Shown: in pieces, positions 4,338 through 38,698 of the stretch
How positions within the stretch are numbered: position 1 is the first letter of the stretch
Layout of the letters: the number at the start of each line of letters is the position of its first letter
IMG/VR virus record: IMGVR_UViG_3300021431_000003
Location: 64,001 to 128,000 of that record
Reading direction: 5' to 3' (one strand)
From: a virus
Taxonomy: Duplodnaviria > Caudoviricetes
Length of the DNA: 64,000 bases
Program-made: the position numbers and the translations under genes
The notes under the pieces: model-generated
Seen by the model: only the letters and a program-made list of their open reading frames with translations
Told to the model about the DNA's origin: nothing
The model's database searches: none

Positions 4338-7300
4338 TTAGCTCTTAGCGATTTGATAAATTGCATTTATAATGTCTTCTCCAGAGTTGTTATTATTTAG
4401 TGCAGTTCTTAATGCAGACAAACCATTCTTAGAGCCATTTGGAATTTTCTTATTATTACTATTATCTATCGCGGTGGTAGTATTTTCTGTATTGACAGCA
4501 ATCGTAGCTAATACAGCAAGAATATCATCTATCTTATTACTGTTGTCAGCAATAATAGCAGCGAGTCTTATTATATTAGCAAGATTATCTCCGCCATACT
4601 GAGTATAAGTATTGTTGTCTGCACCCATTATAGAACCTTTACCTGTATGTGGAGATACTATTGTATTATTATGAGCGTTAGTATTATTAGAAGAGCGTAC
4701 TACTCTACTGCTTCTAATATCATCCAGAGATTTTAATGGTCCAGTTCCTCTACCGTAACCAGTACGATAAGCTCCAGTAATTAAATCTCTGTTTACATCT
4801 CTTGTTACAATATTAGGAATTGTATTAGAGTCTGTAATTTTTCTCTTAGAAATTGGAATTCTGTTTAATTTAGCCAAATCAGTTTTACCATTTCTAGCAG
4901 AACCACGACCAAATCTACCATTACCAGAACCTTTATATCTAAGAACAAGTTTACATTCATTATCTTGAATAGTCCACGCACCAGGTTCTCCACGATTACC
5001 ATGACAAGAATCTGGGTTTGGAAGTTGATTATTGTTATCAAGATAGTACTTTGCTAGGCAATAAGAGTTGTACATACCATTACCGATAGAACCACCTGCG
5101 TCACCAGAACCAGCATTGAAACCGAATCTAGTTCCTTTAGAATTTGTAAATACATACATATCTGTATGTCCATGACCACTATGGAATCTAATGTCACCAG
5201 GTTGTACGTCATTAGGGTCAAACTTTAGAACTTCCCAATCAGATGATAAATTTCCGTCCTTATCATATATACATGTATTACTTGAAGCATTATTCCAGTT
5301 TTGAGTTCCAAAACCTTCGCCATGATAAGTATCACTATAATTCTTTTCAGCATTCCATCTAGATGTATAATAACCCATATAATGTATAACAGCAGACATC
5401 ATACCAGAGCAGTCAGGTCTTTCGTGTTCAAGTACAGTACCGTCTCTACATACAAGGTCATTATATTTAACACAATTACAGTCATAAGTTAGATCTGGGT
5501 CTGCATTATATAGAGCTTCAAATACCATAGCTGCAGCATATATAATATCATTACCATTATAAGCTGCTGTAGTATCAGAAGGTGTTGTATTATTATTAGT
5601 TTCAGTACCATAAAGTGCATCATAGAAATTACCAAATATATCTTTAGTTGCTCTTCTAGTATATTCACCTAAAAGTCCAATCAATCCAGTAGCTACACCC
5701 TTATTATTATCTGTAGAAGTAGAAGTAGTACTGTCAGTCGCTGTAGTATCTTCTTTCGTTGTTTCAGATATTGATTTTAATTTATCAATACTGATAAATT
5801 TATTTGAATCAATTATTTTATCATTTGTATTAGTGTTCTGTGTAGTATTATCAACAGGAACACCAGCGGTCCAAAGATTATCTTGACCTATCTCAGCAAG
5901 TTTTTCTTGTCTTTCAATTTCACCAGAGTTAGCAAAATTAATTGGGTCTTTTGCTCTACCAGTTATAGATAATTTATCTTCATTTACACCTCTACCAGAA
6001 CCACTAGAAGATTGTCCAGTAACAAGACCATATACTGCCAACGCAAATAAACGTCTCTTGAAACAATATAGGTGCTTATACTTGATATTTTTATATGCTT
6101 CAGATGCTGCTACAGAACCCCAGAAATCTGCAGAACCTTCAAGACCACGCTCAAAGTTAACAGCTGCTTCATCTGGTTTAGTAAGCTTCTTATATTCATC
6201 TACAGTATTTGCTACATTAAAGCCCATACTTCTGATTTGAGAAGCTGCTTTTTTAATTCTATTCTTACTCCAGTTAGAACCATCAGTAAGTTCTTCTTTA
6301 ACGTGTGCTAATTGTCCAGTCCATTCCCAATCAGAGAATCCATGAGCTCTAGCCCATGCAGGATGGTCATTCCAAGGTAGAGTCCATTGCATTAGTCCTC
6401 CACCCTCAGCAATATATCCTTTAAGTGCAACTGGCTTGATATTTTCAATTGTTCCACCGCCGCACTCTTGAACCCAGTTACCTATAGCACCACAAGCTGC
6501 AGCAGTACTACATCCACATTCATTAACTAAGAATGAATAGATTTCTGCACCGCCTTCGTCCATTGTAAGTGTAACAGACTCACCTTCGAGAGTAGCAGTA
6601 TAACTCTTTCCTATAGCAGCCTTTGCATCTCCTCTAACATTTACTCCTGTACTATCATTATTATTAGTAGTATTATTAGACGATGAACTGAAATTAACAC
6701 CTAAAGATTTAGCTGCATTATATATCATACTAGAAATGGTAGAATTTGTAACAGCTGATACACTAGAAATATATTTGTTAGCGAGAGATTCATTATTCTT
6801 GCCTCTACCTGTAGTAATTCTTACAGTAGAATTCTGTAGAGTATCAGCAAGGCTATAACGTGTACTGCCACGCCTATCTTCAGAATCTTCTACTATTACA
6901 TTACCATTCTTATCGAGCCCTCTAGCTACTACATAGTGAGAATACTTAGAACCATATGGTGTTCTACCACTATTCTGACTATCTCTACCCATTAAGATAA
7001 CAGGTTTACCCTGAGCGAGACTGTTTATTACATCAGCATTATTAGCATTAGAATTGGTTTTAATACCATTCTTATTGAGATAAGAATTAAAGTATTCAGG
7101 ATAAGTACCACCATTAACTTCTTTGTACTTATTATTAAGTGCATAGTTAACAGCATTACGCATATCACCATTCTTACCGTACATTCTAAGTACAGATGCA
7201 GCTGATGCAGGACCGCAACCAGAATCTGCGATAGTTTGGCTTTCAGAATCTCCTGCAGTTCTATAAGAACCAGAATAAGCTCTCTGATAGATATGATATG

Positions 7301-10300
7301 GGTCAGAACCATAACCAGAATCATTAGAATTATCCTTATCTCTACCGAGTCCAAAGAATCCTTTAACACCGCTCATTATTTTGGATGCAGTATTTTTAAT
7401 TCCTTGCCATAATCCACTTAATACACCACCATTAGATGCGGTAGCATTATTTGTTCCACTAGAAGAAAATGTAGTAGTACCATTACTAGAAGAACCAGTA
7501 TTATTTATCATAGTTGCAGTACTACTAGTATTACTTTTCGATTGAACTGCATTCATACCTGCAGCAAGAGATGCTGTAGCTAAAGAGAATGGTGCTTTAA
7601 CAACTCTGTTCATAGATTCTACAAAGTTGAATAGTCCACTCATAAATGGATTCTTCTTATCAAGTTCAATCTTCCAATAATTTTTACTTGTAGGCAAAAT
7701 AGACAGCTCATCAATTCCTCTATTGATAGAAGAGTTTTTGCTAGCTAAGCTCTTAAAGAATTCTTCAATCCCTTCAAACCCACCAGTTAGACTCTTGATA
7801 GAGTTATTGATTAGATTACCGAAATAAATACCTACTCTTTCTAATGGATTAGTATTCTTTAACCATCCAAAACCTCTCTCCAGACCCTTCATGAGAGGAT
7901 CTAGACTTCCAGTTAATGGACTAAGTTTATCGTTAGCATTTGCATTTGTAGCTACTCCATATTTGTCAATACCATCATATGATGTAGCAGCATCAAGAAC
8001 AGATTTTTCATCATACTTAGACATATCTACAGAATACTTAGAAGTATCAACACCTTCTATTTGTATTTTAGACATTTCATTTGTAGTGAAATATGCTGGC
8101 ATCATTGCGTCAAGAACAGCTTTAGTAATTTCAGCTTTCTTTCCACAGGGTTCAAATATTTCATTGATAATAGCACAAACACCAGCCATTGCTCTGATAA
8201 GTTTCCAATCAGAATGTTCTTCGTCTACATCAAATTGACTATTTGGGTCATCTTTACCAGAATTATATACGTCTTTAAGATGATGACTAGCATCCCATGG
8301 ACCAGTAAAGTTAGTAACATTGCTTGCTACTTCCTTTATTACGGATTCATCTTCAGCTACAAGAATAGCATTAAGATTAGAAATTACTTGAGTGCCTACT
8401 TCATTAAACTTGAATTTATTGGCATTAAGTTTTTCTTTACCCTTTAACTCATTACCATCTTCATCATATTGGTCAGAATAGTTGAAATCCTTTTCTCCAA
8501 AATACTGCCAAATAGATGAGAATATAGTAGAGAGCTTTTTGCGTACTTTATCACTCTTGCCTTTAGATTCAAGATTTGCTGTTTTTTCTAAGATTACACT
8601 CTTAGATGCTGAATCATAACCAAACATAGCTGACCATACATCTTTAGCACCATCACCAATCTTAGTAGTAATTGTCTTATTACCTATAAGATTATTATAG
8701 TCTTCGATACTAAGATTTGTATTATTCTTAGTATTATATGCTTCTACAGCAGCTTTAGCTTGAGCTCTTTCTTCTTTAATCTTAGACATGTCAATTCCAG
8801 GAATTAAGTCTAAAACATTAATAATCATTCCAACTAATGCATCTCTGATAGAATCAATAGAAATAATTAAAGTTGCAATAATACTAAGAGCTGCTAAAAC
8901 AGCACCTACGGCTGCAGCACCGCCGAATGATGCACCAGTTACAGCTTCAGCTAGTGTCATAATAACATCAGGAATTATATTAATAATACCACCAGTAAGT
9001 CTTTCTACAAAAGATGGTTTAGGTGTAACTATACCGAGTAGGTTTCTGCAATTATCTACACCAAGTAAGAAGTCTGCAACCATCATTACAATAGAAAGTA
9101 CGCTAGCAGCACCTTTAGCTGCAGCTGTAGAACCTTGTTTAGCGATATCATCAACACTATCGCCAATTACATCGCCAGTACCCTTAGCAACTTTTTCGGC
9201 TATTTCATCAGCATTTTCGTTTATACCTTTACCAAAAAGCTTAGCAATTTTTTCGTTCTTAAGAACCTTTGCTATCTTTTCTTTCATTTTACCTACAGAT
9301 TTTTTGATAAAATCAATAGCCTTTTCAAAGAAGTTTGCGTCTCCAGAGGCAATCTTTTCAGCAAGTTTATCAGCTTTCCACGCTTTCTTTGCAGCAGCCT
9401 TAGCAGCATCAGCTTCAGCTTTAGCTGCTTTTAATGCATTCTTTTCAGCAATCTTAGCAGCTGCAGCAGTCTCTCTATCAATCAATACCTGACCAATTTT
9501 AGAGAAAGCTCCATTTGTAATTTTATCTCCAACTTTACCAACGGCATTCATAGCAACACCGTGTATAGCAGCAATAGGTTTAGTTGCTTTTTCTGCAATA
9601 TTAGTAACACCTTCACCTAATCTACCGACTATCTTTGTTGGAGTAAATGGAATTTTCTTTAACGCTTTGAATGGAAGACCAAGAATCTTAGTTGCACCAG
9701 TCATGGCTTTAATACCCTTAGCTCCATTAAGAACTCCCATATTGCCTGCTCTTGCAGCAAGTCTTCCAACTAATCCAGCCATTTTACTTTCAGATGAACG
9801 TCCTACATAATCTGCATCTAATGCATTTGCATTTTCTAATGCCACTTGTTGTTGATAAGCAGCGTTTTCAGAAAGCGATTCATCTGCTAATTCATTATAT
9901 TCACTTAATGGAATATAACCACCATTACTATCAAGAGTATATGCCTTATTAGTTTTAGAATCTTTGAATATTTGTTGACCAGAAGCATTTGTTCCTATAT
10001 AATAATAATCTCCAGATATTTTAGAAGTTACTTGTTTACCAGTAGATTCATTAGTATATGTGCTAGTACCATCTTCATTCTTATTACCAGATATTTTATT
10101 ACCATTCTTACTAATAGCTTCACTTGGGAAGTTTATATTAGCAGAATATCCAGGAGATGTAAGTTGTACATTACCACCAACAGTGTTAGGTACGTCTATT
10201 GATGTTGCTTGTACATTTACTTGTTCTCCAGGAGATGTATCAGGAATTTGTATTTCTAATGCACCTTGTCTACCTTTAAATACATCCTTAGCATAATCTA

Positions 10301-13300
10301 CTAAACCTTGACCGACATTCTTAACAACTGTCCATACCATAGGAATAAGATTCTTACCTATACCATAAAGAACCTTTGGCACAAAGTCACCATATACAGT
10401 AACGAAACCAGTCTTCCAAAGTTCTACAATATGAGCTCCAACCTTAGCAAGGCTATTCCAGAATCCGCTAAGACCTCTATCTGGTGCAGCATATTCTCCT
10501 TCATTATGAATCCAATTATGAACCTTCTCAAATTTAGATTTAAAGAATTTTCTAATAGGATTAACGATACCAGAGATTATACCACCCTCATATTCACCAG
10601 TAGTTTTATTCTTGACACCAAAGATTTTATCTTTAGCTTTAGCAAGCCATGGCTTAACTTTTTCACGAATCGCAGGTAATATATCTTCTTTAATGAATCC
10701 TACTATTAATGGAACGAATACACCGCCAACAAATAGCCACTTGATAATCTTACCAATCTTAGAATCCTTCTTACCTTCAAAATTCTCTTTATCTTTTCTT
10801 AATTGTCTAGCATCCATTCTGTCGAAGAATCTACCGATAAAAGTATCCTGTTCTTGGTTCTTTTCTTTCCACGCTCTTACAGCATCAAGCTTACCTGCAA
10901 CAGCATTTCTAATACCAGATTTAAGAGTACCAGTAACAGATTTATATCTATCAGAACCTACTACTTTTTTAATAGCACCTCTCATAAATGTCTCTGTTAA
11001 AGAAGCTTTACCATAACCGTATCTAGCATAGAATCTACCATTAACTTTATTTTGTTCTTTAGCATCTAGTTCGTTGTATTTCTTACCATACAATTCAAGT
11101 GATAATTCATCAAGTCTTTCATCTTTATTCTTGATAGCAAGAGATATAACTTTATCTCTTTTAGCATCAGATGCCTTCTTTTTAATTTTTTCTTTAGTAT
11201 CATTAGCCCAGTCACTTACCTTAGCTGCAGCGGTTCTAATACCATTATTTATTTTATCTCTTACACCTTGAAGCTTAGATTGAACTCCATTTCTGATATT
11301 ATCAGAAATGCTATTCATAAGTTTCTGATATCTACCATCAATGAATCTTTCAACAAATACTGCATGAATTGCTTCTTGTTCTTTTTCAGTTAAGTCTTTC
11401 CAAAGAACATTATTTTCATGACCATTCTTACCAGCATATAGTTCTTTTACTAATTTCTGCAGTTCTGGACCTGCTTCTGGTTTAGCATCTTTATTATTAG
11501 AGTCAATTATAAATAACCTAGACCAAGCATATTCAGCTTTTCTCTTTAGATTCTCTCTGACTTTCTTCATTCTTTCTTCTTTAGTACCTTCAGCATTATC
11601 ATTAAATAAGATATTACCAGTACCTTTAATAAGTTTGATGGTTTGTCCTAGTTTACTTCTAACAAGACGTTTACCGATTTGCTTGATACCACCAATTATT
11701 CCACGACCGAATACTTGGTTTTCTTTCTTAGCTTGGATGTACATATTAACAAATTCATCATGAACTTGTTTTTGTTCATCCTTAGTACAAGCACTAAATC
11801 TACTTACACCAAGATTACATCTTTTTGTAATAGCATCAAGGAATTCAAACTTATCAGCTAATTCTTCTTTAAGCTTATTTTGAACCTCTTCGCTAGCTGT
11901 ATTAGCACTTCTTAGTGCTTCTAATGCAGATTGGTAAGAAGCTACTTCCTTATTCCATTCTTTTTCAGCTTCTTGTTGATATTGATAATTATTAAGTCGC
12001 TGAATCAAGGAATTATCATCAATCTTATGGTCACTTAAAGCAAGACCTACATTAAATCCTATCTTCTTTACACCTTTAATAGCACCACTGATAATAGACT
12101 TACCATGGGTTCTAATAGCATCCTTTACAAATAGAGAATGGATACCTGTAAATTTTGGTAAATCTGGCATAACAATAGGATTCATATATACACCAAGCTT
12201 AAGAGACTTAGCTATCATATCACCGAAAGACATGTAACTATCTTCTATAGTCTTTGGTCTATGGTCAGCAAGATAATCCTCTATGAATTGACGTTTAGCT
12301 GCATCATAAGATACAGGTTGACCTTTTCCAGGAATAACATTATAGCCGTCTACTTTATAATACATTTCAAAATTATAAGGAGTTTCTCCACGATAGATAA
12401 GAATCTTACGTTTCATTACCTTAATCTTCTTGACAGCTTCTTCTTCACTGCATTTTTCTTTATTCATTATCTTCTGCTTATATGTCTGAATATCATCTCT
12501 AATTCTTTCAGGAACACAGAGTTCTTTCAATGCGAGACCATCAAACATTTGACAAGCAGTATCAATTAATTCATTTATTTCATTATTAAGTACATTAGCC
12601 ATTCTAGTATCAGGAGCTAAATAACCCTTTAAGTCACCAGTAAGCATTGGAATATAATCATTCCAAAGGTCATTAGAAATAAAGTCACCCGCCTTAATAG
12701 AGTCTTTATTAATAGAACCTATCTTATCATTCTTACCAATAACATAACCACCATTAGCAGCATTTTCTTTAATAGCTTTTTGTGATCTAGAATCCTTTAC
12801 AGATTTAATATAAGCTTCTTTAGAACCATACTTAGCTTGTTCTTCTTTGGATAACTTGTCATATCCATTACCAATTGTTAAATCATAGTGGATGTTTTCA
12901 AGTATTTCTTCCATCCTTTTAGCTGCAGTATTTACAGTTTCAAGAGGAGAATCTTTACCCTTCCAGAAAGCTTTTTCTGCCTCAAAAGCAACTTCTTCAT
13001 CTGTAAGGCCTACACCTTTATGAGCTAATTCACGATTAGCCATAAGTTTAAGATTTCTAACAGCCTTCTTATCTCTAAGGTCTACATTAATACCCTTAGA
13101 TAATAAGTATTGCTGTACAGTCATCTTACTTCTCTCAATATCTTTATAATCTTTAGATGCTTTATTCATTTTATCTCTATGAAGTCTTAATTCCTTCATA
13201 ACAGATTTCTTAGTAGCATTATCGATGTTTCTAGTATTCAAGAATCTTTCAACATCTTTGTCTCTACCTTCTTTAAGCATCTTAATGATTCTTTTAGCAT

Positions 13301-16300
13301 CTTTACGGTCTAAATTATTTCTAAGCTCTTGACCTAATACATCATAAGAAGAGTTTACAAAATTATCAATCTCACCACTATTTTCGTCATAAGAAAGAAT
13401 ATTTAACAGAGATTCTATATCACCGCTAGTATAATCAGCAAGCTTTTCATCTATAGCAGACCATTGATCTGTTTTAGCCATTTTTAACTTACCTCTAGCA
13501 GCTAATCTCTGTCTTGCGGTCATATCATCTGCACGACCTCTTCTAATACGATTAGCCTTTAATCTACCACCAATACCTTCATCTCCAAGAAGTCTGAAAG
13601 GTTTAGTAGCTACACGACCAAGTCTACCAGCAATACCAATAGCACCGCTACCGATTTTACCAGCTTTTTCAAAGACGCCTCCAAGAAAATTATTTCCAGC
13701 TGCATTAGCTCTAATCTTCTTGAATATATCTAATGTGAAATCCTTGATATCAACAATTGTATTTGTTAATTCTTTAAAGATAGATTGAGCACCAGAAGTC
13801 ATAGGAGTTATTATATTATCACGAATAGCTCCGAATAATCCTCCTTCTCTCTTGGCATCTTCTCCATCACCATTCTTTTTACCAAAGATTTCATCCATTG
13901 TCTTATCTATAATTGTTTGTCCGAAACCCTTTAAAGGTTTAACAATATTATCATTTAATGCTCCTCTTACACCACCTCTACGTTTACCATTCTCACCTTC
14001 TTCACCAAGTAAGAAGTCTTTGAATTTATCAGTAGAAGTGACATATCCTGCAGTAGCACCAATAAGTGCACTACCAACAAGACCAAAAGGACCAGGGAGG
14101 AATAATGCTGCTGTAGCTGCACCAATTCCCATATTTTTAGCACCCTTCTTGAGTTTGTCTACATTCTTATCAGAGAATATACCACCCTCACCAAAGAGTG
14201 ACCCTTGGAAGATTTCAGAATTCTTTGCGAATCCTAAGCCTGTACCGATTAATAAACCACCTAATGGACCAAGAGGAGTTAATAAGCCAGCTGCCATACC
14301 AGCCATACCACCCTTAGCCATATCAGGAGCAGCTTTTTGAAGTTCTTTAGAGATTAAACCAGTATCTTTTCTCTTAGGATTACCATTAGAATCGACAATG
14401 ATTTCACCAGTTTTCTTATCCTTTTCTACATCACCAAATAAGAAGCTAGCAAAAGAACCAGTAGATTTGGTTAAAGTAGAAGCAGCACCTACTGCTGCAC
14501 CAAGTAATGGACCGCCAACTAATAAGCCAGCTACACCGCCTAATACACCTCTAGATGCCATATTACCTAAGAAAGCAGCTCTCTGTTTATCATCTTCAAG
14601 AGTTGTCCAATCAGTAAGTTTATTAATGTCAACCTGCTGAATTCTTTCTTTAGCCTCAGCATCTAACTGTTGATGCTGAGCTAATTCTTCTGCTGTTAAA
14701 CCATCATTAGCTTCAGCATTATATCTAAGACCTCTAATGAAGTTCTTTTCATTACGAGATTGAAGATTTCTTACAGATGTAGGAGCTGGGTTATAAACTA
14801 CACCACCCTTAGGAATAGTATAGATACCAGTCTGACCAATCTTAGAACCGTTAAGATATTCACCTGCAGAAAGTACAGACTGGAATGGACGACCAGTTCT
14901 ATTTACACCACCTGCAGCCATACCTCTTACATTTATTGTAGAGGCTTTAATACTAGCTAATTTCCTTTCAGCTTTTTCAAGTTTAGTTCTTAAATCATTT
15001 TCTAATCCAGGATTGCTAGCAAATAAAGGAGCTTGACCAGCTAATTGATTTCTTAATCTAATGACTTCAGCTTCAGCTTTAATTATAGCAGCTTGTTTTC
15101 TTACATTTGCTTCTTCAGAAGTTCTTACACTTATATTTTGACCTTCGTTAGAATGAGTCCTAATATAATTCAATCTGTCCATTGCATTTGCAGAAATATG
15201 CTGATTATAATCATATACGTCAGTACTTGCTTTAGATGCTATTTCAGCTCTTCTTAAAGCTCTTTTTTGTGCAGATGTTAACGATGGTGTTGGTGAAGGA
15301 GAAGGATTGCTACTAGAAGATTCTGGATTAGTTATTTTACCAGCTAATCTCTTAGCCTCATCAATTTCCTTTTTCCACATAGCATGTACATCATCTGCAT
15401 TCTTTGCCATACCTTTACGGAATCCAGCTGTAAAATGAGAGAGTAAACCTTCTTCTAAGATATTACCTTCAGAGTCCACATCACCAAAGATTTTATTTTT
15501 GATTTTGTCTACATGAGGCTTTATTTTTTCATTATAATAGTCCTTAACTGGACTCAAAAGTTCTCCAATTTGTTCTTGAACCTTTTTGAAGAATTTTTGA
15601 GTGTGTTCTTTCATTAATTGCCAGAGAGACTTTTTCTGGTCATCAGCTTTCAAATCTTCACCATAAATAAGATTACGTAACCAAGCATCTGTCTTTACAA
15701 TAGTACCAGTTACTTTATCCATAACAGCAAAGTTAGTCTTCTGAGTAAACCATTTAGCTGCAATAGCAAGTTTCTCTGTAGTACCAGTAGCTTTAGATAA
15801 GTTCTCCATTAAGCCCTTATCTTTATCATATTTATCAGTGGCTCTCTTAAGCTTATCAGTATTTTCTTTACCAATAAGCTCTTCCATTTTCTTCCACTTT
15901 TCTTTTTCTTTCTTAGCATCCTCTCTCTGCTGATTCAGTTTGAACTCAGATTCATACTGTGCACCTTCACCATAGTAATCTGATACAAGACGAGATATAC
16001 CAATCTGGTCACCTTCAGATTGATAATTATAAGAGTCAGTAATAAAGCTAACAGACTTGCCCTTTCTACGTGCCTGCTCCTCCACTCTCTTTATATTAGA
16101 TTCAAAGCTTTCTTTAGCTTTTTCTTTAGCTTTTCTTTCAAGCTGTTCATAATATCTAGATGTATACTTTTCATCAGTAGTGCCATTATATTTTACTATA
16201 GCACCATTTTCATATAGTATATCATTGAAATTAATTGGACTTGGTGGGTTTGGTCCACTATTGTTTACATTAAAAATAGAAAGATTTCTAAGATAAGAAG

Positions 16301-18218
16301 AATATGCTCTGATAGTATTAAGACTGCTTCCCATACTTCTAAGATATTGATATAGTGTAACGCCATATTCGTCTTTAGCTCTTAAAAGAACCTGAGCAGT
16401 AGGCATTTCTTGAATATGTCTTTCATTCATATCACCCTTAGCATCTACATAGCTCTTACCATGATATGACTTAGCATCTCCAGTAATACCTTCCATAGCA
16501 GCGAGCATTGCAATACCGCCTTGCTCATTAAGCTGCTTAATGGCACTATTCTGACTTCTAAGAATTTCAAGTAGTTGTCCATCAACTGCAGATATATCTG
16601 GACCACTGAATCCTTTTCTCATCTTAAGTCTTCCATTATCATCTTTTACATAACGAAGACGTTCACTGTGTTGGAAAATCTTCTTCATAGATGTGTAGAT
16701 AGCTTTTTCTGCAGTGGTCAAATCAGATTCTCTAAGAGAACCAAAATCGCCTGCAGCTTGAAGCTTAAGAGCAAGAGATTGGACTGCTGTATTAGCTCTA
16801 TCATATTCTTCTTTAGTAGCATACATAGAGTCAAAACTTCTATTAGTACCAGCTTGAATAGTGCCCTTGATAAGAGATTCTGTACCACGTTGAGCAGATG
16901 TAGTGATACTATCATATGCCTTCTTAGCAGATTTCATACTAGTCCATCTACCAGTAGTGTAATCAAATATCATTTCTTCGCCACCTGTCATAGCAGATGT
17001 CATTTTACGAAGATAATAAGGGATTACATCTATAATAGCCTTCTTAGTAATACCATCAAAAGGAATAGCACCCTTTACATATTTATTAGGGTCTACAGAT
17101 TCATTAGAACCAGTCTTAATTCCAAGAATCTTACCTAATAGACCAGCTAAACCAGCATCTTCTTTCTTTGCTGCAGCATTAGCTTTAGCAATAAGAGAAG
17201 GAACAAGATTTTCAAGAGTCTTATTAAGAGCCTTTGCTGCTTGGTCAAATCCTTTACCAAGTGCTTTATTAACAGCAGCCTTAGATAATTCTCTACCAGG
17301 GTTAGCAAGCATTGTAGCAAGTAAGTTAGCACCTTCAATGCCACCATCGCCAAATAACATATTGAGACCTGGGATAGCCTGCATTAATTCATTACTAGCA
17401 TTTCTTCCTATATACTTACCATATTCTCTAAGATTAATTACACCACCTCTACCGATGATATCATCATATCCTATCTTTTTTTTCTTATTAGGATCTTCAA
17501 TTTGTTTAGCATATAAATTACGCTGCATTTCGAGTAACTCATCCATCTGTTTAGTGAGTTTAGCAACGTTATTATCTACATTAGCCATAAACTTGTTGAG
17601 ATTTTCATTCATCTGGTTCTGTACTTTTGCAGTCTGCTCTGCATTCTGTTTTAAGAAACCAGTGATGTTTTGTAATCCACCATCAAGTTTATTTATAAGA
17701 CGTTCATTTTGAGTATACAGTAGCATTGTATTCTCTTTAGAAACATCCATCTGAGCTTTGCCAGTTTTGACGATAGCTTCTGTAGTAATAGCGGTCTGTA
17801 ACTTACTGTTCTTTTTAACAGCAGTAGCAATAACCTTATCACCATCAGTAACATCTTCATTACCGAAATCAAAGTCATCATCATCGATGTCCATACCTTG
17901 CATTAGGTTACCGCCATATTTATTCATAACTTCCAGCTCTTTATTCTTAGCATAGAAGTCACCAGTAGTAACACTATATACAATAGAATCAAAGCCAACT
18001 CTAGCAGCATCCATTACTTTATTATCAGTAATAGTCTTCTTAATTCTAGCATAAGTAGTTCTATAATCTTTAATAGAATGATATGCTTCTTTAAAGACTT
18101 CTTGATTCTCATTCTTAAAGTCTTTAACATAGGTAAACTTCTCAGACAATACATCTGCAGTAGTATAAGCAACCGATTTGCCTAAGTTAGCAAGATACTT
18201 TTGAACCTTAATAGACAT
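4338..18218 (-). CDS. Giant tape-measure-like virion protein with C39-like peptidase, phage tail lysozyme and NlpC/P60-like domains
   Basis: 4626 aa, largely helical, Gly-zipper/TM segments; SGCGPASAASVL...HYVVARG (C39-like), AAACGAIGNWVQE...GGGLMQWT (Phage_lysozyme2-like), DCSGMMSAV...GDIRF...GHTDMY (NlpC/P60-like). Confidence 0.8.
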   Translation of the reverse strand: MSIKVQKYLANLGKSVAYTTADVLSEKFTYVKDFKNENQEVFKEAYHSIKDYRTTYARIKKTITDNKVMDAARVGFDSIVYSVTTGDFYAKNKELEVMNKYGGNLMQGMDIDDDDFDFGNEDVTDGDKVIATAVKKNSKLQTAITTEAIVKTGKAQMDVSKENTMLLYTQNERLINKLDGGLQNITGFLKQNAEQTAKVQNQMNENLNKFMANVDNNVAKLTKQMDELLEMQRNLYAKQIEDPNKKKKIGYDDIIGRGGVINLREYGKYIGRNASNELMQAIPGLNMLFGDGGIEGANLLATMLANPGRELSKAAVNKALGKGFDQAAKALNKTLENLVPSLIAKANAAAKKEDAGLAGLLGKILGIKTGSNESVDPNKYVKGAIPFDGITKKAIIDVIPYYLRKMTSAMTGGEEMIFDYTTGRWTSMKSAKKAYDSITTSAQRGTESLIKGTIQAGTNRSFDSMYATKEEYDRANTAVQSLALKLQAAGDFGSLRESDLTTAEKAIYTSMKKIFQHSERLRYVKDDNGRLKMRKGFSGPDISAVDGQLLEILRSQNSAIKQLNEQGGIAMLAAMEGITGDAKSYHGKSYVDAKGDMNERHIQEMPTAQVLLRAKDEYGVTLYQYLRSMGSSLNTIRAYSSYLRNLSIFNVNNSGPNPPSPINFNDILYENGAIVKYNGTTDEKYTSRYYEQLERKAKEKAKESFESNIKRVEEQARRKGKSVSFITDSYNYQSEGDQIGISRLVSDYYGEGAQYESEFKLNQQREDAKKEKEKWKKMEELIGKENTDKLKRATDKYDKDKGLMENLSKATGTTEKLAIAAKWFTQKTNFAVMDKVTGTIVKTDAWLRNLIYGEDLKADDQKKSLWQLMKEHTQKFFKKVQEQIGELLSPVKDYYNEKIKPHVDKIKNKIFGDVDSEGNILEEGLLSHFTAGFRKGMAKNADDVHAMWKKEIDEAKRLAGKITNPESSSSNPSPSPTPSLTSAQKRALRRAEIASKASTDVYDYNQHISANAMDRLNYIRTHSNEGQNISVRTSEEANVRKQAAIIKAEAEVIRLRNQLAGQAPLFASNPGLENDLRTKLEKAERKLASIKASTINVRGMAAGGVNRTGRPFQSVLSAGEYLNGSKIGQTGIYTIPKGGVVYNPAPTSVRNLQSRNEKNFIRGLRYNAEANDGLTAEELAQHQQLDAEAKERIQQVDINKLTDWTTLEDDKQRAAFLGNMASRGVLGGVAGLLVGGPLLGAAVGAASTLTKSTGSFASFLFGDVEKDKKTGEIIVDSNGNPKRKDTGLISKELQKAAPDMAKGGMAGMAAGLLTPLGPLGGLLIGTGLGFAKNSEIFQGSLFGEGGIFSDKNVDKLKKGAKNMGIGAATAALFLPGPFGLVGSALIGATAGYVTSTDKFKDFLLGEEGENGKRRGGVRGALNDNIVKPLKGFGQTIIDKTMDEIFGKKNGDGEDAKREGGLFGAIRDNIITPMTSGAQSIFKELTNTIVDIKDFTLDIFKKIRANAAGNNFLGGVFEKAGKIGSGAIGIAGRLGRVATKPFRLLGDEGIGGRLKANRIRRGRADDMTARQRLAARGKLKMAKTDQWSAIDEKLADYTSGDIESLLNILSYDENSGEIDNFVNSSYDVLGQELRNNLDRKDAKRIIKMLKEGRDKDVERFLNTRNIDNATKKSVMKELRLHRDKMNKASKDYKDIERSKMTVQQYLLSKGINVDLRDKKAVRNLKLMANRELAHKGVGLTDEEVAFEAEKAFWKGKDSPLETVNTAAKRMEEILENIHYDLTIGNGYDKLSKEEQAKYGSKEAYIKSVKDSRSQKAIKENAANGGYVIGKNDKIGSINKDSIKAGDFISNDLWNDYIPMLTGDLKGYLAPDTRMANVLNNEINELIDTACQMFDGLALKELCVPERIRDDIQTYKQKIMNKEKCSEEEAVKKIKVMKRKILIYRGETPYNFEMYYKVDGYNVIPGKGQPVSYDAAKRQFIEDYLADHRPKTIEDSYMSFGDMIAKSLKLGVYMNPIVMPDLPKFTGIHSLFVKDAIRTHGKSIISGAIKGVKKIGFNVGLALSDHKIDDNSLIQRLNNYQYQQEAEKEWNKEVASYQSALEALRSANTASEEVQNKLKEELADKFEFLDAITKRCNLGVSRFSACTKDEQKQVHDEFVNMYIQAKKENQVFGRGIIGGIKQIGKRLVRSKLGQTIKLIKGTGNILFNDNAEGTKEERMKKVRENLKRKAEYAWSRLFIIDSNNKDAKPEAGPELQKLVKELYAGKNGHENNVLWKDLTEKEQEAIHAVFVERFIDGRYQKLMNSISDNIRNGVQSKLQGVRDKINNGIRTAAAKVSDWANDTKEKIKKKASDAKRDKVISLAIKNKDERLDELSLELYGKKYNELDAKEQNKVNGRFYARYGYGKASLTETFMRGAIKKVVGSDRYKSVTGTLKSGIRNAVAGKLDAVRAWKEKNQEQDTFIGRFFDRMDARQLRKDKENFEGKKDSKIGKIIKWLFVGGVFVPLIVGFIKEDILPAIREKVKPWLAKAKDKIFGVKNKTTGEYEGGIISGIVNPIRKFFKSKFEKVHNWIHNEGEYAAPDRGLSGFWNSLAKVGAHIVELWKTGFVTVYGDFVPKVLYGIGKNLIPMVWTVVKNVGQGLVDYAKDVFKGRQGALEIQIPDTSPGEQVNVQATSIDVPNTVGGNVQLTSPGYSANINFPSEAISKNGNKISGNKNEDGTSTYTNESTGKQVTSKISGDYYYIGTNASGQQIFKDSKTNKAYTLDSNGGYIPLSEYNELADESLSENAAYQQQVALENANALDADYVGRSSESKMAGLVGRLAARAGNMGVLNGAKGIKAMTGATKILGLPFKALKKIPFTPTKIVGRLGEGVTNIAEKATKPIAAIHGVAMNAVGKVGDKITNGAFSKIGQVLIDRETAAAAKIAEKNALKAAKAEADAAKAAAKKAWKADKLAEKIASGDANFFEKAIDFIKKSVGKMKEKIAKVLKNEKIAKLFGKGINENADEIAEKVAKGTGDVIGDSVDDIAKQGSTAAAKGAASVLSIVMMVADFLLGVDNCRNLLGIVTPKPSFVERLTGGIINIIPDVIMTLAEAVTGASFGGAAAVGAVLAALSIIATLIISIDSIRDALVGMIINVLDLIPGIDMSKIKEERAQAKAAVEAYNTKNNTNLSIEDYNNLIGNKTITTKIGDGAKDVWSAMFGYDSASKSVILEKTANLESKGKSDKVRKKLSTIFSSIWQYFGEKDFNYSDQYDEDGNELKGKEKLNANKFKFNEVGTQVISNLNAILVAEDESVIKEVASNVTNFTGPWDASHHLKDVYNSGKDDPNSQFDVDEEHSDWKLIRAMAGVCAIINEIFEPCGKKAEITKAVLDAMMPAYFTTNEMSKIQIEGVDTSKYSVDMSKYDEKSVLDAATSYDGIDKYGVATNANANDKLSPLTGSLDPLMKGLERGFGWLKNTNPLERVGIYFGNLINNSIKSLTGGFEGIEEFFKSLASKNSSINRGIDELSILPTSKNYWKIELDKKNPFMSGLFNFVESMNRVVKAPFSLATASLAAGMNAVQSKSNTSSTATMINNTGSSSNGTTTFSSSGTNNATASNGGVLSGLWQGIKNTASKIMSGVKGFFGLGRDKDNSNDSGYGSDPYHIYQRAYSGSYRTAGDSESQTIADSGCGPASAASVLRMYGKNGDMRNAVNYALNNKYKEVNGGTYPEYFNSYLNKNGIKTNSNANNADVINSLAQGKPVILMGRDSQNSGRTPYGSKYSHYVVARGLDKNGNVIVEDSEDRRGSTRYSLADTLQNSTVRITTGRGKNNESLANKYISSVSAVTNSTISSMIYNAAKSLGVNFSSSSNNTTNNNDSTGVNVRGDAKAAIGKSYTATLEGESVTLTMDEGGAEIYSFLVNECGCSTAAACGAIGNWVQECGGGTIENIKPVALKGYIAEGGGLMQWTLPWNDHPAWARAHGFSDWEWTGQLAHVKEELTDGSNWSKNRIKKAASQIRSMGFNVANTVDEYKKLTKPDEAAVNFERGLEGSADFWGSVAASEAYKNIKYKHLYCFKRRLFALAVYGLVTGQSSSGSGRGVNEDKLSITGRAKDPINFANSGEIERQEKLAEIGQDNLWTAGVPVDNTTQNTNTNDKIIDSNKFISIDKLKSISETTKEDTTATDSTTSTSTDNNKGVATGLIGLLGEYTRRATKDIFGNFYDALYGTETNNNTTPSDTTAAYNGNDIIYAAAMVFEALYNADPDLTYDCNCVKYNDLVCRDGTVLEHERPDCSGMMSAVIHYMGYYTSRWNAEKNYSDTYHGEGFGTQNWNNASSNTCIYDKDGNLSSDWEVLKFDPNDVQPGDIRFHSGHGHTDMYVFTNSKGTRFGFNAGSGDAGGSIGNGMYNSYCLAKYYLDNNNQLPNPDSCHGNRGEPGAWTIQDNECKLVLRYKGSGNGRFGRGSARNGKTDLAKLNRIPISKRKITDSNTIPNIVTRDVNRDLITGAYRTGYGRGTGPLKSLDDIRSSRVVRSSNNTNAHNNTIVSPHTGKGSIMGADNNTYTQYGGDNLANIIRLAAIIADNSNKIDDILAVLATIAVNTENTTTAIDNSNNKKIPNGSKNGLSALRTALNNNNSGEDIINAIYQIAKS

Positions 18219-18301: not shown

Positions 18302-20401
18302 TTAAAGTCTTAAGATATTAGTATAATTGATTGCATCTTTTTCTCTTCTGTCGATACCTACAGCTTCACACGGGAATTGTCTGATATTGTCATTGACGAT
18401 AGAAGTATAATCAATATAATCCTTAACCCACTCAGGAACTTCCATATCATCTAAGATTGCTATACCAGTAATACCCTTAGTAAATTCTTTTTTCTGCATA
18501 AGAGTTACAGCTTTTTCATATACATTAGGATATTTTTCTTTAAGATCTTCTACATTCTTTTTATTAATATCAATCTTAATAAGAAGAACACTATTTCTGG
18601 TACTTAAATCTATAGGTGTAGTATTATCATCTCTAAGTTCATTATAAACTACAGATGCCTTAACACCAGATTCTCTTAATGGATTTTCATAAGCAGCTAC
18701 AGCTTTAATACGTTCTGGCTTAAAGTATTCTTTATTACCACTACGAATAGAATCAATAATTTGCTTTTCAAGAATTGCAAGTTGTTTAACAATTTCTACC
18801 TGAGAAATCTGCCCTGGATTGTCAAGAATCTGTTCCATAAGAATTCTTTGAAGTGCTGCTTTAGTAGAATCCGCAGTTCCTGATTTCTTGATACTTAATC
18901 CAGTAATTGCAAGTGCCTTTTCACGTGGAATAATACTAGATTCTTGACGTTCTTGATATGCACAATAATTCTTTTTTCCATCTGTAATCAAAGCACGCTT
19001 AAGCTGGAATTCATTCTTAAGAATAAAGAAGCTCTTACGCTTAGAACCATCATGACAAGTTGTGCTATTACTATTATCAGAATACTTACCCATATAATCA
19101 ATAGCAAGTTTTCCCATGATACTAGCTAAGATATTAATAATAGAACAACGGAATCCTACCTGAGGTGTAATTACATCTGGGCGTACATAATCCTGCATTT
19201 CAATAACTTCATCTTTATAGAAGTCATAGTCGTATCTTGTTTCAAATGCTGGTTTAACTTCTGCAGTCTTTTCATCAATCTCAATCTCTTTAATCTTCAT
19301 AGGAATATTAAATGTCTTATCGAGAATATAACGATACCAACCATCGAAACTAATAAAACAGCTATCTGTATCTGTTAGCATAGATACACAACGATACATA
19401 TTTTCTGTTCTATCAATTCTATCCATATACTGCTTATCATAATATACCCATTCATAAATCATCTGATAGAGTTCATCCATCATATCCTTAACTTCCTGAG
19501 GCGGTTTATTCGGGTCGATAAACGGCACATCAAGTGTAGAAAGAATCTGAATAATCTTATTCATAACTACTGTATTATCTACAAACCAGAACAGATTATT
19601 CTTATAGAACAACTTATTCAGTTCATGCTGAGTACAACGATTCAAGATATCCCAAATCAAAGTCATTTCTTTTTCAGTAGGAATCCAATAGAAACCACTA
19701 CTATAAAGAATCTTAAAGAATACTTCTTCTACATTCGGTACTTTATCTCTATCAATAATAAAGTCGTCTGGATACATACCAATAGGTTCTCTTCTTACAT
19801 TATTGATAAAAGTGATTACTTCATTAAGACTACTGAACTTAACATTATTTGCCATTGTAGCTTCAAATAACATAATTGCTGCAGCAATACAACTTCTACC
19901 CTGCATTGTAATAGACTGTGCTACATAAAGATTATAGAAGATTGAAGTATGATTACCAGATGCACCATACATTGCATTACCTGATACTTTTTCTGATGCT
20001 TGTAAGATATTATATTTCTCAAAGTTCTCACTACCCTTAGGATACATAAACATTTGATCTTTATAATATCCTCTTTGTTTGAGAAACTCCTGAATAAGCA
20101 TTACAAATGGATTAGGAACAGAACCATGCTTTTTAAACATAACACCACTTACTGTGATGATAGGTTCTCTACTCATAATATAATCTGTTACTTGCCATAA
20201 AGTAGTCTGTTCTTTCACTTTGGTATAATTGTTATCTAATACAGCAGGTGTATCATTACCTCGCTTCATAATAGAATAATCAATCGCTTCTACAAGTTCA
20301 TGTTCATATAAACCTGGAAAAGTTAATCTAAGTGCTTCAAGCACTTCCTGTCTATAAATGTCTGCAGTTCTAGACTGCACAATCTGTGTAATATCTTTCA
20401 T
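18302..20401 (-). CDS. Split family-B DNA polymerase, subunit with motifs B and C
   Basis: KVSGNAMYG (motif B), TDTDSCF (motif C), KKNY; start moved to 20401 after GAAAGGAG RBS. Confidence 0.85.
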   Translation of the reverse strand: MKDITQIVQSRTADIYRQEVLEALRLTFPGLYEHELVEAIDYSIMKRGNDTPAVLDNNYTKVKEQTTLWQVTDYIMSREPIITVSGVMFKKHGSVPNPFVMLIQEFLKQRGYYKDQMFMYPKGSENFEKYNILQASEKVSGNAMYGASGNHTSIFYNLYVAQSITMQGRSCIAAAIMLFEATMANNVKFSSLNEVITFINNVRREPIGMYPDDFIIDRDKVPNVEEVFFKILYSSGFYWIPTEKEMTLIWDILNRCTQHELNKLFYKNNLFWFVDNTVVMNKIIQILSTLDVPFIDPNKPPQEVKDMMDELYQMIYEWVYYDKQYMDRIDRTENMYRCVSMLTDTDSCFISFDGWYRYILDKTFNIPMKIKEIEIDEKTAEVKPAFETRYDYDFYKDEVIEMQDYVRPDVITPQVGFRCSIINILASIMGKLAIDYMGKYSDNSNSTTCHDGSKRKSFFILKNEFQLKRALITDGKKNYCAYQERQESSIIPREKALAITGLSIKKSGTADSTKAALQRILMEQILDNPGQISQVEIVKQLAILEKQIIDSIRSGNKEYFKPERIKAVAAYENPLRESGVKASVVYNELRDDNTTPIDLSTRNSVLLIKIDINKKNVEDLKEKYPNVYEKAVTLMQKKEFTKGITGIAILDDMEVPEWVKDYIDYTSIVNDNIRQFPCEAVGIDRREKDAINYTNILRL

Positions 20402-20593: not shown

Positions 20594-21055
20594 ATGGGAC
20601 TTTATACAAATCCTAATACAATGGAAGCAGCTCATGAAGTTGAGATGGAACTCAATATGGATGAGCTTCTTGAAGCATTCTACTATGATGACCATTATTC
20701 TGATTCTGATGAAGAGAAGCGTGAACTTCTTGAATCTGCTGATACTCTTCTTGAAGCAAAGAAGATTTCTCGTAAAACAATTGTTCGTCTTAACAAGAAT
20801 GATGATCTGACTCGTCGTACTGGTATGGCAGCACTTCAGCTTGCTAAGGATAATAACGATGCTCTTTGGAAGAAGCTTGTTAAGAATCGTATCATGGAGC
20901 GTAAGCTTCTTGCTGCTATTAAGAAGAAGTATGCTAATAAGGCTCAGCTGGCTGCTCGTAAGGGACAGCGTGCATATGTTTCTGGTCAGGGTACTGTAGG
21001 TAACCAGAATGTTAAGAAGATGCAGCCTAAGGAAATGTCTAAGACAAGAAATTAA
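20594..21055 (+). CDS. Hypothetical protein, probably virion-associated (acidic N-terminus, basic C-terminus)
   Basis: AAAAGGAGG RBS, late promoter, biased codons, repeated LLE(A/S) motifs. Confidence 0.8.
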   Translation: MGLYTNPNTMEAAHEVEMELNMDELLEAFYYDDHYSDSDEEKRELLESADTLLEAKKISRKTIVRLNKNDDLTRRTGMAALQLAKDNNDALWKKLVKNRIMERKLLAAIKKKYANKAQLAARKGQRAYVSGQGTVGNQNVKKMQPKEMSKTRN

Positions 21056-21067
21056 TAACATAAAAAT

Positions 21068-21183
21068 AATGGTATCGTATGAGTGACGATATCATTGTGT
21101 GCATATTTCGATTGTCATGATAACAATCGGTTCCTTTCTTTTTATAGGATTGCGGGTGGTATTATCCATCCGCAATTTCTTTC
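21068..21183 (+). ncRNA. Candidate small RNA 1
   Basis: Late promoter at 21057-21068, two hairpins, UUCCUUUC tract, terminator stem 21149-21176; no sense ORF with an RBS. Confidence 0.5.
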
Positions 21184-21189
21184 TCATTG

Positions 21190-21205
21190 ATATATTATTA
21201 TATTG
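21190..21205 (+). promoter_or_regulatory. Early-type promoter
   Basis: ATATATTATTATATTG upstream of the RNAP beta' C-terminal gene. Confidence 0.65.
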
Positions 21206-21266
21206 ATAGAATATGACATAGTCAAAAACTATCAAATAACAAATATATCTTGGAGGTAGTATATCT

Positions 21267-23480
21267 ATGACCAGTACAGTTTATGACTATGGTGTCTTTA
21301 CACCGTTAATTAATGGACAATCTGTTATTATCAATACAGCAGATATCACAAAAGAAACAATCGATGATTACCAGAACGATTTGAAAGACGTCTTTCTGGA
21401 TTATATCGAAAATCCTACAATCCAGAAAAATAAGGTTACATTTGTATTTGATAATGGTATGAGTGTTAACCTTCCGACAGCATATGCACTTATTAACATT
21501 ATCGCTTGGGGTTTCATTGTTAAGACAAATCAGACAATTAAACCTAAACACCTGTTCTTTAATAAGAAAGGTATCACTAATGCATATATCAAATCTTATA
21601 TTGATAAGTTTGCTATTATGCCTGTAAGAGATATGGTATCAGATGCTAATGATAGAATGATTATCCATAATCTCAATCGTACTATCTATGACAGTTTAAG
21701 GGACTTAAAGTTTGTAGATAAGTTTGCTTGGTACTTTAATAATAGTATCAATATGGAAGACTTTATTCTTATGTACTATTCATGCCCTGGATTTAAACAA
21801 ATTATGGATAGACATAATAATAACTACTATGCTCAATTTCCTCCCGAACAAATGAATCAAGAAGCATTAAACGATATGAATAAGCTTATCGAATATATCG
21901 TAGATGCTAAGAAATATATTGGACGTGACCATTGTCTATCTGATGCATTTAGAGCCAAAGAAGGTGTTAAACCTAAACAGGCTCGTGAGATGTATATTAA
22001 TATTGGTGTTAAGCCTAATGGTGAAGGTGGTATCTTCCCGTATGTAGTTAACACTTCATATATCTCTGGCGGTGCTAATAATGTAGCGTTCCACATTCTC
22101 GAATCTCTGATTGCACGTATTGCACAGAATCTTTCTAAGAAGAATACTTCTCGTTCAGGTCACTTCTCTAGAATTATGATTCTGAATTGTGCAGCAACAA
22201 GAAAATATACAGTACCATATTCTGATAAGATTGACCCTGGATATGATTGTGGTACTCGTAATTTTCTTGAGTATTATGTAGAAGATGAAACTGCTCTTAA
22301 GAAGATTGCAGATAGATGGTATCGTATTGACCCTATGGGAATCGAACATCGTCTTGGTAATGTATATAGAGTAGTAAAAGAGAATCAGGACCTTATTGGT
22401 AAGGTAATTTATCTACGTTCCCCGATTAAGTGCTTATCTGCAGCTCACGGTAGAGGTATCTGTAGAAAGTGTATGGGTGAACTGTATAATATCGTACCAG
22501 CTACTAATATTGGTGTATACAGTGTTACAAATCTTACTGAACGTCTTACTCAGATGATGCTGTCAGCTAAACATCTTCTTGAGGCAAAGATTGATAGTGT
22601 GACATTTGATACTTCTACTATGACGCCCGAGGAGATTTCTAAGTATATCCTTATTGATGAGGGTACAATCTTTATCAATCCTAATATTCCTGATATGAAG
22701 AAGTGGCATCTTATTATTAAAGATGGTGATATTCAGGAAGAGGTACTTGCATCTCTTGATGATGGAGATGATGATGATAACGATGACTTCAATATTGAAG
22801 ATACAATGAATTATATCAATGTATTCTATCTTAAGAAACAAGGTTCTAATGAAGTGATTACTATTAAGACATCTAATGTAGATAATCTGTATCTCACTGA
22901 TTGGCTTAATGATTATATTGAACTTAAGAATCTTGCTGATAATAACGAAGATATTGATATTCCTGTATCTGTACTTCTTGAAGATGTATCTCCATTGTTT
23001 AATGTAGGAATTCACAATGATGATATGTCTGAGCGTCTTGAGTCTGTTATTAAGGTTATCGACCTGAAGGCTAATACAGATTCTTATACTGCAGAGACAT
23101 TTCTTAAGGCTCTTTCTGATAGACTTAATAATATCGGACTTGACCATATTATGTCTGTTCATCTTGAGATTATCATTATGAATCAGATTAGAGATAAGAC
23201 TGACATTATCGAAATGCCTGATTGGAGTGTTCCTAATCAGCAGAATTATCAGATTTTGACACTGAAGAAAGCTGTAATGACACATCCTAGTATTACGATT
23301 GCAATGCAGTCTGAAAATATTGCTAGAATGTTGTATAATCCTCTCAGCTTTAGAAAGCACAAGCCATCTCCTTATGACTTAATGTATATGGTACAACCCC
23401 AGAAGTTTATTCATAACGACCCTGAGGTTAAGAATGATGGTACAGGTATGGATGCTCTGTTCAAGTATATGGGAGATTGA
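21267..23480 (+). CDS. RNA polymerase beta' subunit, C-terminal part (probably non-virion RNAP)
   Basis: KNTSRSGHFSR (bridge helix), DCGT, LRSPIKC...GICRKCMG zinc site, LTQMMLSAKH (trigger loop), VHLEIII. Confidence 0.9.
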   Translation: MTSTVYDYGVFTPLINGQSVIINTADITKETIDDYQNDLKDVFLDYIENPTIQKNKVTFVFDNGMSVNLPTAYALINIIAWGFIVKTNQTIKPKHLFFNKKGITNAYIKSYIDKFAIMPVRDMVSDANDRMIIHNLNRTIYDSLRDLKFVDKFAWYFNNSINMEDFILMYYSCPGFKQIMDRHNNNYYAQFPPEQMNQEALNDMNKLIEYIVDAKKYIGRDHCLSDAFRAKEGVKPKQAREMYINIGVKPNGEGGIFPYVVNTSYISGGANNVAFHILESLIARIAQNLSKKNTSRSGHFSRIMILNCAATRKYTVPYSDKIDPGYDCGTRNFLEYYVEDETALKKIADRWYRIDPMGIEHRLGNVYRVVKENQDLIGKVIYLRSPIKCLSAAHGRGICRKCMGELYNIVPATNIGVYSVTNLTERLTQMMLSAKHLLEAKIDSVTFDTSTMTPEEISKYILIDEGTIFINPNIPDMKKWHLIIKDGDIQEEVLASLDDGDDDDNDDFNIEDTMNYINVFYLKKQGSNEVITIKTSNVDNLYLTDWLNDYIELKNLADNNEDIDIPVSVLLEDVSPLFNVGIHNDDMSERLESVIKVIDLKANTDSYTAETFLKALSDRLNNIGLDHIMSVHLEIIIMNQIRDKTDIIEMPDWSVPNQQNYQILTLKKAVMTHPSITIAMQSENIARMLYNPLSFRKHKPSPYDLMYMVQPQKFIHNDPEVKNDGTGMDALFKYMGD

Positions 23481-38485: not shown

Positions 38486-38564
38486 ATTGATTTCCTCCTT
38501 CTATGAGCATTTTATAGAAATGTTTTTGACATAAATGCTTAATAGGGTATGTTAACATTTAGAT

Positions 38565-38698
38565 AAGATGGTATTTAGGCCTCCATTTATACCATCTTAC
38601 GGTTGAAGGGCATGAATGATTTCCTCTTTGATGCATTGTTTATTCCTCTGAGAAGTCCTCCATGGTATCGGGGCCATGGAGGACAAACTTTATTTTTT
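38565..38698 (+). ncRNA. Candidate small RNA 2
   Basis: Late promoter 38554-38565, hairpin TAAGATGGTAT/ATACCATCTTA with CCTCC in the loop, terminator stem 38655-38684; no upstream + strand gene for it to terminate. Confidence 0.6.

Follow-up and report, generated by a model that had tools for sequence, protein, structure and literature searches.

Downstream of a virion protein gene of an uncultured phage, we found what is very probably a conserved and functional RNA element on the plus strand. The predicted RNA extends from 21068 to ~21183 (~115 nt) and folds into three hairpins; it is probably, though with less certainty than its conservation, transcribed late and independently from a start predicted at 21068. 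The full chain, i.e. a late small RNA that is nested in a 3′UTR, has its own transcription and blocks Shine-Dalgarno (SD) sites, is put forward tentatively, and we would not quite call it probable. Unless genome positions are named, all coordinates refer to the window, the whole stretch of 64,000 nucleotides that was analysed. It corresponds to bases 64001-128000 of a single virus record of 223,528 bp (~223.5 kb) with 33% G+C. The features of the locus are as follows.

18302-20401, minus strand: gene for a family-B DNA polymerase, divergent
20594-21055, plus strand: virion structural protein gene, 153 aa (phrog_26909, E 1.1e-07), with a strong ribosome-binding site (RBS) and coding score
21057-21068, plus strand: AR9-type late promoter motif AACA-N6-TA, matrix score 9.7 bits
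21068-21078 / 21086-21096, plus strand: hairpin 1, 5′-terminal, 11 bp, beginning at the predicted +1
21108-21115 / 21123-21130, plus strand: hairpin 2, 8 bp, with CAUG in the loop (21116-21119)
21131-21139, plus strand: UUCCUUUCU, single-stranded and conserved, complementary to AGAAAGGAA-type SD sequences
21147-21188, plus strand: intrinsic terminator, a 13-bp hairpin (21147-21159 / 21166-21178) with a T-rich tail
21190-21205, plus strand: AR9-type early promoter ATATATTAT-N6-G for the RNA polymerase gene, with G+1 at 21205
21267-23480, plus strand: RNA polymerase beta′-like gene encoding a split subunit, 737 aa (phrog_3015, E 2.4e-55)

By its sequence, the source is an uncultured jumbo phage and a distant relative of the AR9/PBS1 group. 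This placement is based on the product of 21267-23480, which showed ~25% identity to beta′ of the Bacillus phages AR9 and PBS1 and of Yersinia phage phiR1-37 (tblastn), and on the lack of a DNA match in a public phage collection (a blastn search with the locus against 50,697 public phage records returned none). The phage encodes subunits of a split multisubunit RNA polymerase, as required for AR9-type late units. Related loci were recovered using the RNA polymerase protein as query, with protein identities of 69-98%, and the synteny of the 20594-21055 gene and the RNA polymerase gene was unchanged in all of them. The largest gene of the window, a single ORF of 4626 aa with a strong ribosome site, lies at 4338-18218 on the minus strand.

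All of the elements that a sequence-only reading had listed for this locus (a late promoter right after the upstream stop codon, a 5′ hairpin, a second hairpin, a complement of an RBS-AUG, and a closing terminator) were present where it had placed them. The fold of 21068-21186 reached −37.7 kcal/mol (z −4.62), and none of 200 shuffled sequences folded as well. The predicted +1 coincides exactly with the first base of the 5′ hairpin in the window group, L018, and L008, and these three stems are unrelated in sequence. The second hairpin spans 21108-21130, and the CAU in its loop was predicted to be unpaired with a probability of 0.99. In hairpin 1, a double change replaces G-C by A-U in L001, and wobble changes occur in L004. 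In hairpin 2, A to G changes give G-U pairs, which are workable in RNA of the plus strand only. The consensus fold from RNAalifold likewise had three hairpins, and in 10 of its pairs both partners had changed.

The terminator that closes the unit (21147-21178 and T-rich tail) contains six G-C pairs in its hairpin. It is common to the upstream mRNA and the predicted small RNA, and every relative has its hairpin at this position, even where the small-RNA module is lacking. Hairpin 3 fits the definition of a plain intrinsic terminator or 3′UTR, but the region as a whole does not. We consider it to be more than a plain terminator since the 90 nt before hairpin 3 hold a conserved promoter motif, hairpins with compensatory changes, and a conserved nonamer. 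A search of Rfam gave no matches at gathering thresholds in the window; the best sub-threshold match of the locus was L20_leader, with 22.4 bits compared to a threshold of 58.7.

In the passages of the AR9 paper covered here, late promoters have the consensus AACA-N6-TA/G, the last base of which is the transcription start (PMC5312081). The site at 21057-21068 shows this motif, with AACA at 21057-21060, six intervening bases, and TA at 21067-21068, right after the upstream stop codon (21053-21055). Because the last motif base is the start under the AR9 rule, the predicted +1 is the A at 21068. The bare pattern AACA-N6-TW was not enriched in the window (131 found vs 142 expected). Despite this, the late promoter class can be regarded as real in this genome because of its fixed distance to start codons: genome-wide, ~35 intergenic AACA-N6-TA sites are located 30-48 nt upstream of start codons. 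These ~35 validated sites have the extended consensus AACA-WWTWAR-TA-ATAT, and the scoring matrix was built from them. On this matrix, site 21057 ranked 49th; its 9.7 bits correspond to the score level at which chance coding hits start, and ~5 sites truly inside genes scored equally well or better in ~412 kb of strand. Taken by itself, the site is a credible but not an outstanding candidate promoter.

The late promoter right after the upstream stop proved to be a conserved motif. It occurs 1-7 nt after the stop in six diverged relatives, i.e. L001, L004, L003, L018, L008, and L002, with late-matrix scores of 8.8, 9.7, 10.8, 13.5, 13.1, and 0.2, respectively. Throughout the seven carrier lineages, the seven informative promoter bases were kept; the N6 spacer and the flanks diverge. 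Promoters of this type appear to drive non-coding RNA as well, as a late-type site lies 11 nt upstream of tRNA-Lys in this genome.

Several further observations were made on promoters and leaders in these genomes. The late promoter of tRNA-Lys (genome 22893-22990, outside the window) is very strong, with 17.7 bits; the phage late polymerase appears to transcribe this tRNA, and the same arrangement was detected for two tRNAs in G002. Late mRNA leaders are short (typically ~28 nt in this genome) and unstructured. At genome 9245-9380 (window −54755), a late promoter precedes a ~130-nt leader, and a strong, conserved hairpin lies in this leader ahead of the ribosome site of the next gene. This leader has homologs at G001 38598 and G002 14377 and may be regulatory. 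The early promoter ATATATTAT-N6-G at 21190-21205, directly after the terminator and outside the small RNA, matches the AR9 early consensus as given in the passages covered (PMC5312081). Its motif is repeated at ~40 intergenic places genome-wide, and all relatives have conserved the copy at 21190-21205. Among the predicted early transcripts, many open with G-A-U-A-G and carry the complement C-U-A-U-C a few bases later (e.g. window 21205-21240 and genome 136369, 138676, and 147256), so that early RNAs seem to begin with a conserved 5′-terminal hairpin.

Gene order was identical in all recovered relatives, and the intergenic region was found in two states. Seven lineages carry the module: (i) the window, (ii) L001, (iii) L004, (iv) L003, (v) L018, (vi) L002, and (vii) L008/L036. 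In its full form, it consists of the late motif 1-7 nt past the stop, ~90 nt of structured RNA, and then the terminator. In eight lineages (L009-L016 and L037-L042), the stop is followed by a short spacer and the terminator alone, and neither AACA-N6-TA nor UUCCUUUCU was detected in their intergenic regions. Promoter, 5′ hairpin, and UUCCUUUCU either co-occur or are jointly absent. In L002, the promoter scored 0.2 bits, the 5′ hairpin is missing, the pyrimidine stretch is a variant, and the terminator hairpin has no U tract; in the other relatives, 6-7 U follow this hairpin. From its sequence, the L002 module looks like a decaying copy. In the tree of the RNA polymerase, carriers were placed on both sides of the midpoint root, which suggests an ancestral module with one or two later losses. 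At positions 2865-2905 of L002, a 79%-identical relative, the module is truncated and the hairpin has no U tract, which may reflect decay or, alternatively, late transcription entering the polymerase gene.

UUCCUUUCU is perfectly complementary to AGAAAGGAA. It is identical in the window, L001, L004, L003, L018, and L008, and it was predicted to be unpaired in five of these six lineages (P(unpaired) of 0.85-0.98 vs 0.34-0.48 for the whole RNA); in L003, it was predicted to be mostly paired (P(unpaired) 0.35). Ribosome sites of the phage have the consensus AAAGGAGG, with 8-9 nt from GGAG to ATG. This consensus fits a 16S rRNA tail ending in CCUCCUUUCU, as in Firmicutes, which we take to be the tail of the host rRNA. 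UUCCUUUCU equals the Firmicute 16S rRNA 3′ tail in 8 of 9 bases, and its pairing with the canonical GGAGG is poorer than that of 16S rRNA. A CAU is located 4-12 nt upstream of UUCCUUUCU in the window group, L003, L018, and L008, with varying spacing and sometimes in a paired state; by chance, a CAU is expected in such a span in ~0.2 of cases per lineage, as estimated from base composition.

The complement of an RBS-AUG had been proposed as one continuous stretch. What survived of it is the exposed nine-base anti-SD sequence, identical in six of seven lineages; the long block is not conserved, and the distance to the CAU is not fixed. Ribosome sites of the GAAAGGAA type form a minority, with 8, 4, and 8 in three carrier genomes vs 4 and 2 in two non-carriers. 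They are slightly commoner in carriers, which is a weak difference only.

Since an exposed nine-base near copy of the ribosome's mRNA-docking tail is present, the RNA may well damp translation of some messages. We infer the following course of events. The phage non-virion RNA polymerase would start at A21068 from the promoter at 21057-21068, and transcription would stop at the shared terminator near 21183 to yield the ~115-nt RNA. The same sequence would also be carried as 3′UTR of the upstream virion-protein mRNA. The hairpins at +1 and at the terminator would protect the two RNA ends. Acting in trans, the unpaired UUCCUUUCU, as a near copy of the 16S tail, would pair with AGAAAGGA(A/G)-type SD regions of putative targets, possibly assisted by the nearby CAU in some lineages, and this presumed repression would keep 30S subunits off the paired messages late in infection. 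The anti-SD reading is based on the conserved exposed motif and on the analogy to the Streptococcus csRNAs (PMC3091779) rather than on an identified target.

That the locus could be just the 3′UTR of the 20594-21055 gene had been named as an alternative from the outset. In part, this is correct: no terminator lies between the stop and the region, and the upstream mRNA must therefore contain it; likewise, in all relatives, the terminator is that of the upstream gene. A structured 3′UTR and nothing more, with no start of its own, with hairpins that stabilise the mRNA, and with a pyrimidine stretch that acts in cis (e.g. by pairing with its own ribosome site or by binding a factor), would also agree with the moderate promoter score. 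We nevertheless consider it unlikely, as it leaves unexplained why the informative promoter positions were retained in seven lineages amid diverged surroundings and why the predicted +1 is the starting point of three 5′ hairpins of unrelated sequence. The RNA also pairs poorly with the start region of its own upstream gene (−13.7 kcal/mol, rank 156 of 196). Another way to account for an exposed motif that resembles the 16S tail in 8 of 9 bases, in line with the SD consensus, is that the RNA is made but, instead of pairing with RBSs, titrates a protein or nuclease specific to this tail or to pyrimidine-rich RNA, as a decoy or sponge. Such a role would suit a motif that is conserved though no conserved mRNA target was found. 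However, no candidate binding protein was identified, and both the nearby CAU and the small excess of start-region complementarity over shuffled sequences are better suited to pairing with mRNA, which makes the decoy distinctly improbable.

Two more readings concern the genes that could be expressed from this region. The late promoter might provide 21267-23480 with a second, late transcript through a leaky terminator, preceded by a structured leader of 200 nt. In the passages covered, AR9 has some continuously expressed genes that are preceded by both an early and a late promoter (PMC5312081), an early promoter does follow at 21190-21205, and the hairpin of L002 lacks a U tract. Nevertheless, the hairpin in between has 13 bp, six of which are G-C, and is followed by a T-rich tail, the other relatives have 6-7 U at this point, and predicted terminators work strongly in AR9 according to the same passages (PMC5312081). 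Furthermore, a leader of this length differs from the ~28 nt typical of late leaders here, and gene order is unaltered in the relatives that lack the late promoter; we regard this reading as very unlikely. On the minus strand, the complement of the motif forms a ribosome-site-like sequence that is followed by an ATG in all motif-carrying lineages, which could indicate a micro-gene with a very short ORF (MTIEICTQ in the window), and a sigma-70-like match is found at 21225-21197 on this strand. The peptides, however, are unrelated among the window group, L003, L018, and L008 and differ in length, the spacing to the ATG is 4-12 nt instead of the usual 8-9, the sigma-70-like hexamer was not kept in L018, L008, and L002, and the G-U changes in the hairpin suit the plus strand only. 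A micro-gene is thus hardly credible. No conserved ORF was found in the region on either strand. Coding on the plus strand was rejected as well: the two ORFs of at least 30 aa that are wholly intergenic both have GTG starts and lack a ribosome site, the internal ATG is missing from L004, and relatives with 98% identity differ by a 1-nt indel that puts them out of frame.

Candidate targets of a late small RNA with anti-SD action were searched for using RNAduplex against all start regions of three complete genomes (the source genome, G000, and the related G001 and G002), and scores were combined over 138 ortholog triplets. This target prediction, which had been proposed as a check on the sequence-only reading, yielded no conserved target over the three genomes. 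The best combined z was −1.87 (sd 0.67), which equals the expected extreme of 138, so that no target stands out. When the native flanks were compared with shuffled ones, the value observed for the best start region was reached by 1/30, 1/30, and 3/30 shuffles in the three genomes. In these models, shuffling of the flanks thus somewhat weakens the pairing of the RNA with its best start region.

The best duplexes in G000 had −32.9 and −30.7 kcal/mol. Individual candidates were rejected for the following reasons: (i) the gene for a 127-aa protein at genome 221193 was top in G000 (−32.9 kcal/mol), but ranked 46th in G001 and had a z of −0.98 in G002, and G003, which lacks the RNA, carries this gene as well; (ii) an AIPR-family gene at genome 144635 looked promising in both G000 and G001, but the homolog in G002 uses an ordinary GGAGG site; (iii) the gene at genome 163253 was among the best candidates in G000, but without consistent support in G001 and G002; and (iv) the neighbouring virion protein, DNA polymerase, and RNA polymerase genes were poor and inconsistent pairing partners. 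The AIPR-family gene (abortive-infection-like, PF10592) is located at genome 144435-145967 (L019) and at G001 127106-128326 (L021), and it is absent from G003 and G004. Its start region is identical over ~31 nt between G000 and G001, though the proteins are only 53% identical, and its start codon lies in the loop of a 6-bp inverted repeat. The AIPR gene and the next gene are each preceded by the same repeat element, a terminator plus an A/T-rich stretch.

The three complete genomes were also scanned for late promoters without a gene within ~50 nt downstream. Exactly two units composed of a late promoter, >100 nt without ORF, and a terminator were detected in each of G000, G001, and G002, namely the 21057 locus and the following unit or their homologs.

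38554-38698, plus strand: second unit with a late promoter, a hairpin at +1, UUCCUCU-type stretches, and a terminator

The remaining hits of the scan were tRNAs with late promoters and a few long leaders. The second unit resembles the 21068 RNA in its +1 hairpin, which opens with a similar A-A-(G-A)-U-G-G-U-A-U, in its exposed UUCCU-type stretches with a CAUG nearby, and in its strong terminator. In contrast to the 21068 RNA, it is free-standing between divergent genes and not nested in a 3′UTR, and its motif is UUCCUCU (twice) instead of UUCCUUUCU. The local alignment of 38554-38698 with 21057-21186 had a score of 28, which was matched by ~30% of shuffled sequences or random genome windows (1000 shuffles). 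A covariance model of the 21068 RNA, R1, did not find the second unit; it matched the locus itself and the G001 homolog, the remainder being ordinary terminators. R1 is not a sensitive test, since the diverged G002 homolog was missed as well.

The notion of a dispersed family of small RNAs can therefore be retained for shared architecture only, with no significant sequence similarity and with R1 blind to the second unit. Within this genome, exactly one further unit shares the build, and both units also occur in two related complete genomes. As a separate observation, a strong orphan late promoter of 17.7 bits at G001 12700-12990 is followed by ~290 nt without a called gene, which might hold a small ORF or another non-coding RNA; none of the orphan promoters of G000 corresponds to it.

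A broader proposition, which we think doubtful at present, is that in an uncultured clade of AR9-like jumbo phages two late RNAs per genome copy the tail of the host 16S rRNA and compete for SD sequences of the AGAAAGGAA rather than the GGAGG type. If true, the virus would re-programme late translation of early phage or host messages, and the 21068 RNA would be supplied both in free form and as the 3′UTR of a virion-protein mRNA. If the mechanism is right, jumbo phages would time translation with RNAs of their own, in addition to their own polymerases, and a natural anti-SD module of compact size would become available from a Firmicute-type system. Otherwise, the locus would be a clean case of a conserved structured 3′UTR, and the promoter-like motif would need another explanation.

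Among known systems, the late units of AR9 share with the locus the AACA-N6-TA motif with its last base as start, the early ATATATTAT-N6-G motif, and operons that end in intrinsic terminators, as far as the passages covered describe them (PMC5312081). Internal and antisense late promoters are reported for AR9, and a stand-alone late small RNA does not appear in these passages (PMC5312081). Small RNAs of giant phages have been mapped before in few phages: those of the Pseudomonas phages 201phi2-1 and phiKZ were mapped experimentally, and their function is unknown (PMC11512511). Like the 21068 RNA, they are short units of jumbo phages with a terminator soon after the start, and some are conserved by position among related phages (PMC11512511). 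Unlike it, they are mostly 5′UTR-derived products of premature termination in phiKZ-like phages with no anti-SD motif described, and they were seen experimentally, whereas the 21068 RNA is predicted only (PMC11512511). Against this background, the locus represents a concrete and testable case, with a promoter of a known polymerase type, well-defined predicted ends, and an exposed nine-base motif that points to translation initiation.

The csRNAs of Streptococcus depend on CiaRH, consist of a 5′ stem-loop and a terminator stem-loop, and occur in several copies per genome (PMC3091779). Their unpaired stretch is complementary to SD sequences, usually with a CAU anti-start codon, and a block of translation initiation was proposed (PMC3091779). 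In the same way, the predicted 21068 RNA has stem-loops at its ends and an unpaired SD-complementary stretch between them. It differs from csRNAs in having a phage late promoter instead of a CiaR box, a third, middle hairpin, and no sequence similarity; moreover, its gene is viral and lies within a 3′UTR. With a phage late-type promoter and no Rfam family at threshold, true membership in the csRNA family, which is marked by a CiaR-dependent promoter and a conserved nonamer, was rejected, and the likeness is one of functional analogy only. DapZ and MicL exemplify the type I small RNAs of enterobacteria, which are nested in 3′UTRs. RNAs of this type are transcribed from a separate promoter at or just after the end of the coding region and share the intrinsic terminator with the upstream mRNA, so that the sequence exists as a 3′UTR and as a free small RNA. 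They require host sigma factors as well as Hfq, and their seeds are not known to be copies of the anti-SD sequence. At the sequence level, the locus shows the same design, its promoter following the ORF and its terminator being common to the mRNA and the predicted small RNA; it differs in that the promoter lies 1-7 nt past the stop and is of a phage RNA polymerase type. By analogy, the closest counterparts of the 21068 RNA would be anti-SD small RNAs such as the csRNAs in function, and DapZ and MicL in arrangement.
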